From Octopus vulgaris (taxonomy: Eukaryota), in contig OX597821.1 in the NCBI GenBank assembly GCA_951406725.2, forward strand, positions 70,432,001-70,496,000: 64,000 nt of DNA, written 5' to 3'. This document shows positions 8,590-32,792 of the stretch, piece after piece (position 1 is the stretch's first letter; every line of letters starts with the position of its first letter). The notes beneath the pieces were generated by a model. The model searched no databases and was not told the origin of the DNA. It saw nothing but the letters and a program-made list of their open reading frames with translations. Made by a program: the position numbers and the translations under genes.

Positions 8590-10130
8590 GACTTCAGCAA
8601 TGTGAGGACCAAAGAACTGAAGTATTACAGATTGCAAGAGAGTGTGTGAGAGAAAACCATGATGTCATAGGAGAGCAATGTGTCTGCATGGATGATGGTG
8701 ACCTTCCATTCAATGATTCTCTAAAGAAAGAGTCTTGGAGATGCCACTATGAAAGACTGCTGAATGTGGAGAATGAATGGGTGGAGGAGTCTGCCAATTG
8801 TCGACCGAATTCAGGGACCAGCTACCCAAATCAACAGTACACTGGTAGATAAAGCAATTAAGGATATGAAGACAGGGAAAGTACCTGGCCCATCAGGAAT
8901 CACTGCTGAGATGCTTGAAATATCAGGCAGTGTGGGCTATTGTCTTGTCATCCACATCGTAATTTATGAAGGAGTCATACAAAATGACTGATGTAGCAGC
9001 ACCATAGTCAACTGCTACAAAGGTAAAGGTGATGCTTTAGATAGAAATAAATACAGGGATATCAAATTATTGGATCAGGTGAAGAAAGTTACAGAGAGGG
9101 TCATAGCCCAACTAATTAAGGAGAGAGTTAGCTTAGATGAGATACAGGTAGAAACACCACTGATGCTATATTTCTGGTAAGGCAACTGCAGGAGAAATAT
9201 CTAGCCAAAGATAAACCTCTGTACTTGGCTTTTGTTGACATGGAGAAAGCTTTGACAGGGTCCCCCAATCCCTTATCTGGTGGTCAATGCAGAAACTGGA
9301 GATAGATGAGTGGTTGGTAAGGGACAGGGATACTGTCAGTGAGATTTGGCAACGAGTATAGGGAAGAATTCTGGCTAGAATTAGGGGATCACCAAGGGTC
9401 AGTCCTTAGGCCTCTCTTATTCATAATAGTCCTCCAGGCAATAACAGAGGAATTCCAGACAAGCTCCCCCTGGGAGCTCCTCTATGCTGATGACCTTGCT
9501 CTAACAGCCAAGCCACTACCAGAACTAAAGATGATGTTAAGGGTGTGGAAGCAAGGTCTAGAATCAAAGGGTCTTAGGGTTAACCAAGCAAAAACCAAAG
9601 TTTTATTAAGTAGGAAGGCTGACAAATCACAAATTCCTTCAGGTAGATGGCCCTTCTCGATCTGTGGAAAAGGCATGAGTAAAAACTCCATACAATATAC
9701 CCAGTGTAAGCTATGGACACATAAAAGTGCAGAAGGTTAACTGAGAAAATAGTTTTTGTGTGTGGAAGATGCTCAGAAGCAATAAACAATGAAGATGTAC
9801 AGAAAACAGATTCCATCACATGAGAGGGGGAAAAAACTAGAAGCAGTTGATAGCTTCTGCTACCTAGGCAACCAGGTCTGTAATAGGGGTGGCTGCTCTG
9901 AGAGTGTAGTGGCAGGAGTAAGAATAGTCTGGGCAAAGTTCAGGGGGCTCCTACCTCTGCTGGTATCTAAGGGCCTCTCACTCAGGATGAAAGATAGACT
10001 GTATGATACCTGTATGTGAACAGCCATGTTACATGGCAGTGAAACATGGGGACTGTAACTGCTGAGGACCTGCATAGGCTTGAAAGAAATGAAGCTGGTA
10101 TGATCCGCTGATTGTGTAATGTCAGATGGA
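8590..10130 (+). mobile_element. RTE-clade LINE reverse transcriptase, pseudogenised
   Basis: MKTGKVPGPSGITAEML, LAFVDMEKA, HQGSVLRPLLF, WELLYADDL, FCYLG; multiple frameshifts and stops. Confidence 0.88.
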
Positions 10131-15849: not shown

Positions 15850-16115
15850 TGACGCCATCTTTGAGTGCTTGCTATTATTTGTAGAGCGAGTGAGAGCTAT
15901 TAGACGAATAAAAGATTTTAGGGGAATTACAAATAAAAAAATTTCACAAATTAGGGAACCAAATGAATAAATATCATCATTCAATTAGCAGAAAAATGCA
16001 CTCATGGACTTTGTTATAGGAATATATTTTTTAATAAATACGTCATCATCATCATTCATATAAGTTCACGTGACATTAAGCAAGCTTCTCATTGGTCAAA
16101 AATTTGGGGCGCAAG
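15850..16115. promoter_or_regulatory. Putative (possibly bidirectional) promoter upstream of the PCF11-like gene
   Basis: Cluster of motifs in repeat-free sequence: YY1-like CGCCATCTT (~15853), CRE-like TACGTCA (~16040), E-box CACGTGAC (~16066), reverse CCAAT ATTGG (16091) and a GC-rich TTTGGGGCGC. Confidence 0.45.
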
Positions 16116-16376
16116 TTTTAACGCTTTTCATCTCACCCCCAAAATATTAAGAAAGTATCCATTTTGTCTTAGATAGCAAAGGGAGCTGAAGGCTTTAGGT
16201 TTTTCAAACTTGAAATATTTCACTTGTTTGAAATTAGTGCGTTCACTAAATATATATATATATTTAAAGTCACTGACAATAGCTGTTTGGAGACACGAAC
16301 AGTGTTTGCTCTTGGTCAGTTATATATTTATTAGTTACGGTTAGCGCATATTACATCCATTGCAACTTCAGAAAAG

Positions 16377-16902
16377 ATGGATAGAAATAACACTAGATAT
16401 AGTTACAGCTCGCTTCAAAATAGAAAAGAAACTTATCCCCAATATCAAGTATCAAACATGAGTTTCTACACAAACACGGCAAATTCAAGTCGCTATAATT
16501 CCCAAAATAGCAATTGGCAACCGCATTATTTACAGAAATATCGTGCAACATCCTGGAATCGAAACGCCAACGGACAGAGTAGCCACAGGTTATGCAACCA
16601 ACAACACAACTTGCATCTGTCTTATCCGAAGTTTGTTAACTCAAATTATAAATTCCAGGCTTATAGAAATCCTTATCAATTACGAAATTTAAAGCAACCG
16701 TGGCTTTCACAACCAGCATCCACAGCTTCAAATTCAATGATCCACGCCACAGTAAATCATGTCGACACATCTGAACAAGGTACGCCTGGTCATAGCTTAG
16801 CTAGTTATCAGAGTGTAGGAAATATCAGCCGAAACAATCAGAGACTTATTTCAGTTGATCAGCAAGATGAAATACTACAGGATCCAGCAGTGACTACAAG
16901 CG
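16377..16902 (+). CDS. PCF11-like exon 1 (N/Q/S/Y-rich low-complexity region)
   Basis: ATG at 16377 with an in-frame stop about 45 nt upstream; donor G|GTATGT, phase 1. Confidence 0.75.
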
Positions 16903-19554
16903 GTATGTACTTGGTGATTTTTAAAAATTTTATTTTAATACATAATAAATATTATTAATTAATCATTAATTAAAGTTATTTCTTTTTTAAATGTTAGTAA
17001 ATATATTAACGTATATTTCAGATATTACTGAAACTAGCGGTAACCATGAACAAGATAGACATAGTTTATCAAAATTAAATTCACATGATGGGCGATTGGA
17101 TGAGAGCGGCAATATTGAAAGGAAAGCTGATGTAAACAAGATCCAGGTAATTTTAAAATCTTTATATTTTATTTGTTCTTGTTCTCATATTTTATTCTGT
17201 TGTATTTTCTTATAAAATCTGACATGTCGAAAATTAGATCATTTCCCTAATATATGAATTTTTAATTTTTAGAGCGATACAAAGTATAAAATCGAAGAAG
17301 GTGACCCGAAATCAGAGAGTAATCAAGTAAAGTGGAAAATGTATAAAGTTAAATATGGTAACGAGTTGAAAATCAAACCAACAATTCGTTTTAAATCCAT
17401 TGTAGACAAGATTAGAGATAACACTTGTAATTTAAAACATGTCTATTTAGAAGAGTTTCATTTCAAAGACAACCATGACAAAAAAGAGACATGTGAGTTG
17501 GAATACATCCATGTAAGTAAATACAGTCATTTTAAATTTATAAATATGAATGACAAATAATGAAATTTGAAAGTCTGGATAAGTTCACATATTGTGACGA
17601 GAGAGGTTCTTCACCTCTTCGTATGGCAACCTATCATATCAAAACTCTAGAAGTTGACTATAATTTCGGAAAACACCAGTTTTTCGCATTTTCTTTTTTA
17701 GTTTTTTTAGTACTTAACCGATATATAGGTCATGCAATTTGTTTTTACCACTGCTCTCTTTCCTTCCCTTTCTCTGTCTGTCTGTCTCTCTATTACACAC
17801 ACTCTCTCTCTCTCTCTCTCTCTAAAAATAAAAAATATATATATGCGCGCGTGTGTGTGTGTACATCTTCTTATTAAGTACGAAGCGGTCAGCGATGTCT
17901 TTAACTAGCCATTTATTTCATTATATATTTCAGAATGAAACAAAATGGAAGCTGTATAAACTTGAACACGGTAATGAGCTGAAAATAAAACCAAACCTTA
18001 CAGAAATGAATACTTCAGATTCTTATAAGAAGATGAGCAAGATTTTACCAAATCTTAGTAAAAAATATCTAACAACGTAAGCTATTTGAAGCTCTCTTTA
18101 ATTATAGTTTTCTTTATAGAAGATACGTTGAGTAATATTGCATTTTATATATAAAAACACAAGATAATCTAACCTACTTATTTTATTCTTCAGTTTTCGA
18201 AGACCTGTTATTGAAAACCTTTACTTTGGAAAACAATGTTCTATTTGTGGAGAGAGACGATTTAGCAATATGAACGATCACATGGATGGACATTTCCGGG
18301 AAAACACTGTCACTAAACACAAAAAGTACCCCAAATGCAGACAGTGGTACATTCAAGAAGATTATGGTGACGGTAGGTATATGGAAATTGACTTATCTCT
18401 TATAGAAAATTGAAATATCATATTTTCACTTGTTTTGCGCTACGATGCTTTATTTACGTACATTTTGTCTTTATTAGGAGATAACCCTTTCCAATCTCTT
18501 CTGGAAAAGCACCAAAATATGAAGACCGAACAGTCAAAAAGTCTTAAATATTCTTCAGAAAACGATGTAAGTGTATTATCAACTAATGTTATTGCGTTGT
18601 TAATTATTGATATGTGCTGTGATTAACAACTCATGAAAGTTTTACATTTACAAACTTCACGCATATTCATGGGTAAACCAACGAATTCCAGTAACCGAAA
18701 GTGGACTGTGAACGACTGCAAGCATATAGAATTAAATCGTATTTGTCTCTCACTAATCCGGGTTTTACTGATTTTTATGAATATTATTTTGTGTGTGTGT
18801 GTGATGAAATATGTATTACTAAATGCTATTTTGCTGTATATAAACATGTTTGCATGTCATTAAGTTATCAGTTCTCAAACATATTTGTCTGAATCGTGTC
18901 CTAATTTCAATAATTGAATCTCTAATGCCAGGCATGTTTAGTGTGTAAAGAGAAATTCTGCTACATTTTTAACGACGACGATGGTGAATGGCAAGTGAAA
19001 GACGCGGTTACACTGGACGGTAAGGTAAGATCTCTAACGAACAAATAATTATTATTATTATTATTATTATTATTATCATCATCATCATCATCATCAACTG
19101 ATGAGCTGGCAGAATCGTTAGTCTCCATAGATTATTTGTCCCTCGTCTCTTCTCTATCTCCTTGAATCTCTTATGTAAGCGAAAAACAGATTTGGGGCTT
19201 ACAGAAGATAATCCACGACCAGTCTGGAGCAGTTCATAAGCTTTTATTACTTTTTCCCAGTTTAACACTAAGTAGTCTTCAGGTCACGACTGCATTCTGA
19301 AAACTAGTCCCCTGTGATAAGCAATGTTCAGTAGGTGCTGTTCAAAGTGTTGTCACATCCGTTTCCTTCATTATGGACTACAAAGTTGGTGGTAGGTCAG
19401 CTTATTAGATTTAACGATAGACTAAAATTACAATAATCTACAATTACAACAACAACCAGCATAGAAAAAAACAAGGTCTGTATCGAAACTGAAAAGCACC
19501 TTGTATGAACAACTAAATGGTGATACTATATATGTGTGTGTGTGTGTATGTATG

Positions 19555-19593
<39 letters not shown>

Positions 19594-20107
19594 GAAATGA
19601 AGAAAATGCTGACAAAATAATTTAAGTAATTTAATTAGGTGAAAGTTCTTTTTACCGGTTGCGCATTTGTTATGCTTATCAAAAGATTAGAGTTCCTTTC
19701 TGATAGATTTTTTCCTCTTATCTGGAAAGAGGAAAAAATCTATCAGAAAGGAACTCTAATCTTTTGATAAGCATAACAAATGCGCAACCGGTAAAAAGAA
19801 CTTTCACCTAATTAATTTACTTAAATTACTTAAATTATTTTGTCAGCATTTTCTTCATTTCCTTTTTTATATATCACAACACGTGTTCCACATCTCCTTT
19901 TTTAAATATATATATATATATATATATACATACATATATGTATGTATATATATGCATATATATACATATATATATACATACATACACACATATATGCATA
20001 CATATATGTGTGTGTGTGTGTGAAATGCAATGATTATATCTCAGGTATTCATTTATATTTTGCAGATTTACCATGAAATATGCTTTGAGGATCGAGATAA
20101 TATATAA
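16377..20107 (+). CDS. PCF11-like protein (C-terminal zinc fingers and Clp1-binding motif, no visible CID); 8 exons, 478 aa
   Basis: join(16377-16902,17022-17146,17273-17512,17934-18076,18194-18372,18478-18566,18932-19024,20066-20107). All introns are GT..AG, phases are consistent (1,0,0,2,1,0,0), and the 1437 nt are open to TAA. The C-terminus VIENLYFGKQCSICGERRFSNMNDHMDGHFREN..RQWY..ACLVCKEKFCYIFNDDDGEWQVKDAVTLDGKIYHEICFED matches the PCF11 pattern (LY.G.QC..CG.RF..H.D.H.R.N..R.WY; C..C.E.F...DE...EW..K.A...DGKIYH..C.ED). Confidence 0.88.
17022..17146 (+). CDS. PCF11-like exon 2
   Basis: Acceptor tttcag|, donor CAG|GTAATT; encodes DITETSGNHEQ...VNKIQ. Confidence 0.75.
17273..17512 (+). CDS. 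PCF11-like exon 3
   Basis: Acceptor tttttag|, donor CAT|GTAAGT; 80 open codons including KWKMYKVKYGNELKIKP. Confidence 0.78.
17934..18076 (+). CDS. PCF11-like exon 4
   Basis: Acceptor tttcag|, donor AC|GTAAGC; includes KWKLYKLEHGNELKIKP. Confidence 0.8.
18194..18372 (+). CDS. PCF11-like exon 5 (C2H2 zinc finger and RQWY Clp1-binding motif)
   Basis: Acceptor ttcttcag|, donor G|GTAGGT; encodes CSIC...HMDGH...RQWY. Confidence 0.9.
18478..18566 (+). CDS. PCF11-like exon 6
   Basis: NAGNAG acceptor (tag/gag), donor GAT|GTAAGT; encodes DNPFQSLLEK...SEND. Confidence 0.8.
18932..19024 (+). CDS. PCF11-like exon 7 (first part of C2HC zinc finger)
   Basis: Acceptor cag|, donor AAG|GTAAGA; encodes ACLVCKEKFCYIFNDDDGEWQVKDAVTLDGK. 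Confidence 0.9.
19589..19868. repeat. Near-perfect palindrome (~130-bp arms, ~7-nt loop) in intron 7, with degenerate hammerhead motifs
   Basis: 19589-19719 versus 19727-19868 differ only by a 9-bp duplication and about 1 mismatch; each arm contains TTGATAA-GCAT-AACAA-ATGC-GCAA-CCGG-TA. Confidence 0.9.
20066..20107 (+). CDS. PCF11-like exon 8 (end of C2HC finger, stop codon)
   Basis: Acceptor ttttgcag|; encodes IYHEICFEDRDNI*. Confidence 0.88.
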   Translation: MYHEICFEDRDNI

Positions 20108-20397
20108 TTACATTCACACAACAATAAATAAATGTATATAATAATGTGTACATAGGACCACATCAACTCTGAATGACGCAGTCTTTGCTCCATTTTCCGT
20201 CTTTACAAATTACTACAAATGACGGATAACAGAACTATTAAACATTTCTATCATAATGACTTACTTTTAAGCATGATGTAACTTTTTAAAACCTTCCATA
20301 AATTTCCATATCAACATCATTTATACTTTTATACTATTTTTTCCTTAATTTGTTTTCCATTTTTAACATAATTTCTCCTGTAACATGTTACAAAAGA

Positions 20398-31839: not shown

Positions 31840-32792
31840 TCTCTCTATATATATGAACGGCAGTTTGTCTGTCTGTGTGTCTGTGTGTCTGTCAGGTTGT
31901 ACCCTCACCCTGACCACGGCTTTCAACCGATTCTGATGAAACTTGACACACACATAGCCCAATGTCATAATTCAAAACTAACGCAGCGAAAATTTTGAAA
32001 AGTTCCCCCAGTTCTGAAAAAAATCGATTAATTCGACATGGGGTCGAGAATCAGAAACACAAACCACAGACTGTCTAGGGGACGTAACTCGACCTTTTTA
32101 ACTCTCAACTCCATCAATATCCAGCTACTTGAAGCTATTCCTGGTGATGTCCACGTCTACAAATCTATTGATAGGACAGCAGACACCGCCGAGCTTGCCG
32201 ATTATCCTGTTGAATTCCTGAATTCACTTGAACCGCCAGGCCTGCCGCCACATATCCTGAAGTTAAAAGTCGGTGCGCCCATTATGCTCATCAGGAATTT
32301 GGTTCCACCTAAACAGTGCAACGGCACACGTCTGGTTGTGAAACATTTGCCACCACATTTAATAACGGCCACAATACTTACCAGTTGTGGGAAGGGAGAG
32401 GACGTCTTCATTCCATGCATGCACCTTCAACCTTCGGGCGCTGACCTACCAATCCACTTCAGGCGTTCTCAGTTTCCTGTTAAACTCTGCTTCGCAATGT
32501 CCATCAATAAATCCCAAGGCCAAGTCGCTGGGTTACAGTTGGGCGAACAGTGCTTCGCCCACGGTCAACTCTACGTGGGCTGTTCACGCATTGGGAGGCG
32601 CAATGATGTTTTCATATTTTCGCCCAAAGGGACAGCTAGGAACATCGTATACACAGAAGTATTCGAGAGAAGAGAAGACATTGCAACCTACACATGCGCC
32701 TTCGTTCCCTAGAGGGAAAGGACTAGATTGGGATTAGTCGTTGCCTACTAGGGGCTCTTACATACCCGGGCAACGCCGGGCTATGCTGCTAG
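31840..32792 (+). mobile_element. Internally deleted Helitron carrying the PIF1-family helicase C-terminus
   Basis: A|TC 5' end; CCCGGGCAACGCCGGG hairpin then CTAG|T 3' end; ORF EFLNSLEPPGLPPHILKLKVGAPIMLIRNL..CNGTRL..QFPVKLCFAMSINKSQGQ..HGQLYVGCSR. Confidence 0.92.

Follow-up and report, generated by a model that had tools for sequence, protein, structure and literature searches.

PCF11 is a dosage-sensitive core factor of mRNA cleavage and transcription termination and is usually a single-copy gene in animals. A 64,000-nucleotide stretch of Octopus vulgaris DNA (the window; G000:C8:70432001-70496000, on contig C8 of the assembly) carries a gene, here termed gene A, at positions 16377 to 20107 of its forward strand, and we hold with high confidence, as regards identity and family, that this gene is one member of a seven-copy family derived from PCF11. 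By analogy with fragments of the human protein, the product of gene A may work as a cleavage-dead decoy that binds RNA and Clp1 or the cleavage complex via its two zinc fingers, without coupling to RNA polymerase II, a reading to which we assign a probability of roughly 0.4. What is new is a selected, tandemly amplified, truncated PCF11 family in Octopus. The C-terminal domain itself is known and already annotated in UniRef; the truncated family is undescribed. Neither open-licence PubMed Central papers nor the main texts of bioRxiv preprints yielded a description of an octopus or cephalopod PCF11 family, and supplements of genome papers could list such an expansion.

Splice modelling gives gene A eight exons, seven of seven introns with GT-AG ends, and 478 codons plus a stop ending at 20107. 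This bears out the eight-exon, phase-consistent frame proposed earlier without database searches (the sequence-only reading), and five sister copies have the same exons. Exon 1 (16377..16902) encodes residues 1-175, a low-complexity region without a CID and without a match to canonical PCF11, in which 80 of the 175 residues are S, N, Q or Y. Exon 2 (17022..17146), which runs from phase 1 to phase 0, has a homologous exon in the sister copies B1-B5. Exons 3 (17273..17512) and 4 (17934..18076) each carry a basic/aromatic KWKxYKxKxGNELK motif, at 17330-17377 and 17943-17990 respectively, and the 3' end of exon 4 aligns with canonical PCF11 exon 9. Exon 5 (18194..18372) encodes C2H2 finger 1 (18237-18293) and the RxWY half of the Clp1-binding motif (18339-18350), the second Trp of that motif being absent, and is followed by a fast-evolving linker exon (exon 6, 18478..18566) that is 34-38% identical to B. 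The 93-nt exon 7 (18932..19024), with the length and phases of canonical exon 13, supplies C436/C439 of CCHC finger 2 and an exposed patch formed by F447/D449/D450/W454; exon 8 (20066..20107) supplies H468/C471 and the stop codon, and a candidate AATAAA polyadenylation signal (20123..20128, forward strand, as are all eight exons) lies 16 bases past it. An exon 7 donor at 19020 was rejected since it breaks the frame, which the donor at 19025 keeps. The NCBI model of gene A (P0001, CAI9726974.1, 453 aa) is identical over exons 1-6 and then runs into intron 6; exons 7 and 8 are supported because the sister copies share eight exons and the NCBI models agree with our models of those copies.

Intron 7 of gene A contains a near-perfect fold-back of about 290 bases (window positions 19581-19874; arms 19581-19719 and 19727-19874), with a predicted energy of -209.8 kcal/mol (z -36.8 against 100 shuffles). 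It resembles a miniature inverted-repeat transposable element with TA repeats on its flanks, and intron 7 of B1 is far shorter. In pre-mRNA the fold-back would form a long double-stranded stem, a possible editing substrate that could affect exon 8 inclusion.

A separate, complete PCF11, the check that the sequence-only reading had called for, was found on contig C13 (C13:65173427-65194979). Its 15 exons encode 1,792 residues; the protein opens with the CID, has FEGP-like motifs at residues 1060-1223, and then carries finger 1 (1539), RxWY (1578) and finger 2 (1640). A genome search with the CID gave nine matches among 14 candidates, one on C13 and none of the nine on C8; in the 184 kb around gene A the best match to canonical CID exons had an E of 0.98 and the central canonical exons gave nothing significant, nor was a CID (PF04818) found in gene A. 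The absence of a CID, noted earlier for the upstream 16 kb, holds on the scale of the contig. An acceptor-like CAG lies in frame 5 bases ahead of the gene A ATG and could be taken to join exon 1 to unseen upstream CID exons, making gene A the ordinary PCF11. The C13 gene and the lack of any CID on C8 speak against that reading, to which, together with the idea that the cluster described below is an assembly artefact, we give almost no weight, and it is refuted for A and C. A diverged part copy of exon 7, with the same low-complexity peptide in a second frame, was also seen in an intron of canonical PCF11 (C13:65190962-65191100) and amounts to a minor duplication within that gene.

Compared with canonical metazoan PCF11, the octopus family shares the C2H2 finger, RxWY, the CCHC finger (PF21936), the finger-2 patch and the 3' intron positions, with 34-39% identity over 114 aligned module codons. 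It lacks the CID, the charged region, the FEGP-like repeats and the exon with the second Clp1 Trp; moreover, it has a stop right past finger 2, a new low-complexity N-terminus, and seven intact copies instead of one. With the CID, the FEGP-type repeats and the full Clp1 motif missing, gene A does not qualify as a canonical PCF11. The eight predicted zinc ligands of gene A are all present in the sequence (C360/C363/H374/H378 in finger 1, C436/C439/H468/C471 in finger 2), and HMDGH stands where canonical PCF11 has HLDWH, both as first read. Its exon 7 matches Pcf11_C (PF21936) at an E of 8.7e-6 and 26.0 bits, slightly below the 26.7 cut-off that full-length sister proteins exceed. By alignment the finger-2 patch maps to the four residues of exon 7 given above, and an aromatic-x-x-acidic...W pattern is found in all members, the first acidic position of the patch being His in B and Gln in C. 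A structure prediction for B2 (mean predicted local distance difference test score, pLDDT, 39.8) is usable for finger 2 only, where pLDDT is 70-80; the best Foldseek matches for this finger were 2NAX (E 3.5e-3) and 5M9Z.

The Clp1-binding stretch required a correction. The sequence-only reading had its second Trp apparently replaced by Tyr, yet Y402 lies six residues past the first Trp and the canonical second Trp lies seven past. Gene A has R394, W396 and Gly at +7 (compare yeast R480/W482/W489), and nothing in A, B or C corresponds to the canonical exon of 43 nt that opens with the second Trp. The R and first W of RxWY are kept in eight of eight family proteins.

The exon structure of the family shows that it arose, as had been proposed, by DNA-level duplication and not as a retrocopy; what was duplicated is roughly the 330 C-terminal residues of PCF11, now preceded by a large first exon that is new. 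This is deduced because intron positions and phases are common to the family and the 3' exons of PCF11: past exon 1 of C the phases (1,0,2,1,0,0) are those of canonical exons 7-13 minus one phase-0 intron, both have a phase-2 intron 15 codons ahead of the first Cys, and in each the finger-2 exon measures 93 bases. The duplicated part, corresponding to canonical exons 8-14, begins near canonical residue 1460, past the FEGP-like motifs. In a tree of 11 finger modules the family was grouped at 80/85 support with long branches; because that support is limited and carries long-branch warnings, the case for monophyly rests on shared derived features, namely an exon 5 of 179 bases, the deletion of four residues from finger 1, HMD and HEIC in place of HLD and HPVC respectively, a stop codon that follows finger 2 within a few codons, and the missing 43-base exon.

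Gene A sits at one end of a 115-kb tandem cluster with seven intact members, A, B1-B5 and C. A genome search with exon 5 gave nine matches among 13 candidates, eight of them in C8 70.345-70.450 Mb and one at the C13 PCF11. From left to right the order is C, B1 (minus strand), an exon 7-8 fragment, B2 (minus), B6, B3 (plus), B4 (minus), B5 (plus), single-exon fragments and A. Gene C (C8:70337824-70354153, plus strand) is divergent and intact, with seven modelled exons and 585 aa. In B1-B5 the eight-exon frames are intact and encode 437-448 residues, B5 being 11 residues shorter, and B6 is a partial copy with a one-base frameshift in exon 5. NCBI models are identical to four of our five B models, and the fifth differs at two places; in public annotation the cluster copies are 'hypothetical' proteins, and UniRef tags the B and C proteins 'Pcf11 C-terminal domain-containing'. 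The earlier proposal of a lineage-specific duplicate is correct in that gene A is a CID-less paralog and falls short in that it is not alone. Taken as a whole, the observation made at the outset is confirmed and its interpretation is partly supported.

The many inverted copies could indicate a misassembly. Against this, the B blocks, about 92-97% identical in both orientations, differ by 3-8% in DNA and at 14-33 of 448 residues with distinct indels, there is no N in 264 kb, and the divergence among A, B and C far exceeds that of alleles. Repeated inverted segmental duplication fits the B blocks, as judged from their sequences, better than do uncollapsed alleles. Arrays of a 128-bp satellite (11.7 copies, 90% matches) lie between some B copies, at C8:70368840-70370340 and near 70.400-70.405 and 70.428 Mb, and the inverted duplications of B may have started from them. 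The first intron of C holds an open exon-like stretch with a good donor (C8:70339570-70339744) that may be an alternative exon of C. No further copies were found in 55 kb to the left and 94 kb to the right of the cluster. Genome-wide there were 12 Pcf11_C matches, two of them outside the cluster and the C13 gene, and both were rejected as extra copies: one on C11 lies in a B-box/coiled-coil frame (TRIM-like, judged by eye), and the other, on C13, is a repeat with a stop.

A profile of A, B and C run against 2,060 candidate proteins recovered four, the three O. vulgaris types and one 584-aa Octopus bimaculoides protein (P0022). The latter is the ortholog of C, with the same start and likewise CID-less; overall identity is 88%, rising to 95% within the finger module and standing at 86% for exon 1. 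It is named 'sex-determining region Y protein isoform X2', has no such domain and carries Pcf11_C only, so the name misleads anyone mining cephalopod sex genes; 'isoform X2' hints at transcript-based annotation, for C only, and the candidate alternative exon of C is absent from it. Logan records contain open first exons that are A-like at 72% identity (P0007/P0015) and B-like at 71%, and an A-like second exon at 65% (P0011). No squid, cuttlefish or other mollusc members turned up in searches of limited reach. An Atlas search for clusters without a CID returned fungal and plant Pcf11 C-terminal clusters, of uncertain completeness, and no animal CID-less family.

Comparison of coding sequences indicates that purifying selection acts between A and B. 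The ratio of nonsynonymous to synonymous substitution rates (dN/dS) for A and B2 is 0.275 over 431 codons (P 5e-14 against 1), 0.127 over the 103 finger codons (P 3e-9) and 0.45 over exons 1-2 (P 0.002); by counting, A and B give 0.33-0.35 at a dS of about 1. The value near 1 that would have spoken for a neutral relic, a check proposed with the first reading, was not seen (0.275-0.35). Exon lengths differ between A and B1 in five cases, each time by a multiple of three. Over 114 codons A has 10 and B2 has 11 unique residues relative to C, nearly equal counts that give no sign of acceleration of A.

What the truncated proteins do is best approached through PCF11 fragments made by others (here and below, papers are cited by PubMed Central number). 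In yeast, R480, W482 and W489 all touch Clp1 in the structure, with W489 filling a Clp1 pocket (PMC1761425), and joint change of R480 and W482 abolishes the Clp1 two-hybrid signal (PMC3273803). An exposed finger-2 patch has been proposed to contact cleavage-factor subunits, and whether the two fingers serve mainly in RNA binding or in contact with the cleavage complex is described as still debated (PMC5737669). The fingers of human PCF11 supply most of its RNA-binding energy, and a fragment from finger 1 on suffices for Clp1 binding; a CID-less fragment from residue 770 that has the FEGP repeats is active in cleavage in vitro, and PCF11 starting past the repeats co-purifies with Clp1 and binds RNA and is inactive in cleavage (PMC6239180). 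The human fragments dN1123, dN1184, dN1339 and 'zcz' have the same domain content as the octopus proteins and bind RNA and Clp1, dN1123 being cleavage-inactive (PMC6239180); they differ in being laboratory constructs that keep the whole Clp1 motif, whereas the octopus proteins are natural, selected, and have an unrelated N-terminus.

FEGP-type repeats gave no significant match in A, B1 or C, and because they are absent the octopus proteins correspond to the inactive human fragment. For cleavage, the missing FEGP-like repeats are probably of greater consequence than the missing CID, given that the CID-less human fragment with repeats was reported as active (PMC6239180). A decoy is the best guess because the human counterpart fragment, though able to bind RNA and Clp1, fails in cleavage, and the stronger conservation of the C finger module than of exon 1 between the two octopus species adds support. 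The 'specialised' active regulator that the sequence-only reading had offered as one option is argued against by the same repeat loss (PMC6239180). A version of that option, in which the family supplies specialised, active subunits of cleavage factor II for the processing of some transcripts uncoupled from RNA polymerase II, seems improbable to us: the CID is dispensable for human cleavage in vitro (PMC6239180), fingers and RxWY are kept, and Drosophila has testis-specific paralog complexes for termination (PMC11535153), but human cleavage activity needed the FEGP repeats that are missing in all members, and octopus Clp1, a multi-exon gene, appears to be single-copy, leaving no matching partner paralog.

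Several observations weigh against the decoy reading. The second Trp and the following acidic stretch are missing in eight of eight family members, and PF11526, the Clp1-interaction family, was unmatched at E 0.05 by the four family proteins scanned, so that of the Clp1-binding module claimed for gene A only the RxWY half stands. Finger 1 lacks its conserved Trp and four loop residues. For gene A itself, the public model (CAI9726974.1) is without finger 2, and the exon-7 acceptor has the weakest pyrimidine tract of the seven. Selection among B1-B5 is relaxed (dN/dS 0.43-0.55); the estimate for the A branch, 0.12-0.15, has a P of about 0.2 against 1, C being saturated; a frameshifted partial copy and fragments also lie in the cluster; and the analogous Arabidopsis genes PCFS1 and PCFS5 have been argued to be pseudogenes (PMC10839035).

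The loss of the second Clp1 Trp can also be read to mean that the family left 3'-end processing altogether, its fingers now serving as a stand-alone module that binds RNA (or an export adaptor) joined to a disordered N/Q/Y-rich region, with a role in granules or post-transcriptional control in a restricted cell type. A yeast region reported to bind RNA only without Clp1 favours such a role. It is harder to reconcile with the retention, across a dS of about 1 or more, of RxWY and the acidic finger-2 patch, both tied to contacts with the processing complex, and with the finding that Clp1-bound and free human fragments bound RNA alike (PMC6239180). We regard this Clp1-independent RNA binding as a serious if somewhat unlikely possibility, ranked close behind the decoy.

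The relaxed dN/dS among the B copies (up to 0.55), the weak A-branch test and the debris in the cluster fit in turn with A, and perhaps the B copies, being decaying or silent duplicates in a birth-and-death cluster of which only C works, as the Arabidopsis precedent would have it (PMC10839035); protein searches, too, turned up no other species with a full-length A- or B-type protein. PCFS1 and PCFS5 are the nearest natural parallel, lineage-specific CID-less Pcf11-like genes beside full-length copies, but they are intronless, carry many nonsense and frameshift alleles and are called probable pseudogenes (PMC10839035), whereas introns persist in the octopus genes, which evolve under purifying selection and lie in tandem; we infer that the two families arose independently. 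Gene A does not show the marks used to call those pseudogenes: it has seven introns, an intact frame and a dN/dS of 0.28-0.35 against B. Its frame and splice sites are intact at a dS of about 1 from B, the exon-length differences preserve frame, A and B have changed equally relative to C, open A-like and B-like first exons occur in Logan records (71-72%), and an upstream block is conserved. We consider decay or silence of gene A rather unlikely.

If the decoy reading is right, the family proteins would compete with full-length PCF11 where they are expressed, and the competition would lower proximal poly(A)-site usage or postpone termination. In place of contact with the polymerase C-terminal domain, the newly gained low-complexity N-terminus would provide localisation or self-association, and amplification of B would raise the decoy dose. 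Lower PCF11 activity is known to lengthen 3' ends. A bolder and rather doubtful proposal is that octopuses evolved and amplified natural PCF11 antagonists, truncated zinc-finger decoys whose titration of Clp1 or the cleavage complex would reset the choice of poly(A) site and termination across the genome in a single cell type; if true, the family would represent dosage-tuned 3'-end control of a kind not described in animals. In any event, selected and amplified C-terminal fragments are a natural experiment on fingers and RxWY without CID and FEGP repeats. As decoys they would give cephalopods a lineage-specific lever on the length of 3' untranslated regions and on read-through; if they are not decoys, the family documents co-option of a core RNA-processing module. 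Mammalian CstF-64 tau provides a precedent for a germline paralog of a core 3'-end factor. Drosophila tPAF is likewise duplicated core machinery, and the octopus genes may share its cell-type specialisation; the tPAF-like paralogs differ in being largely full-length, working and testis-expressed (PMC11535153).

Upstream of gene A, a candidate promoter block on the forward strand (16060..16121; 62 bases, 256-317 bases 5' of the ATG) is common to gene A and the B copies. It contains an E-box (TCACGTGA), a reverse CCAAT box and an E2F-like site, an arrangement that resembles promoters of the cell-cycle or germline type. Aligned with B2 the block has a local score of 60, against 41 for the best of 300 shuffles, and the 400 bases further upstream are at chance level. 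Conserved non-coding sequence is not confined to the block, since introns 1 and 2 of A and B2 score 48 and 52, above all shuffles. The block was not found in C, which carries only an E2F-like site 628 bases upstream, and a search for its origin elsewhere returned the self match only, being too strict to recover even the B copies. Conservation of the block between A and B suggests a promoter directly ahead of exon 1, and from its motifs and the fast evolution of the family one may guess at a restricted, possibly germline, expression. None of 24 runs was listed as an RNA holder, a blank that speaks neither for nor against expression.

The duplicate KWKxYKxKxGNELK motif is kept in A and all B copies, in which an extra exon holds the second KWKxYK, and C has one diverged copy. 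No Pfam family matched the motif over the cut-off, its genome matches are confined to the C8 cluster, and an Atlas feature search with the middle region of gene A gave no usable match. Derivation from repeats of canonical PCF11 was rejected, with no match (best E 0.12). Elsewhere in the window are ordinary transposon remains, a Helitron-like frame with a Pif1 helicase 2B domain at 32032-32709 and a LINE-like (long interspersed nuclear element) reverse-transcriptase fragment at 9321-9737.

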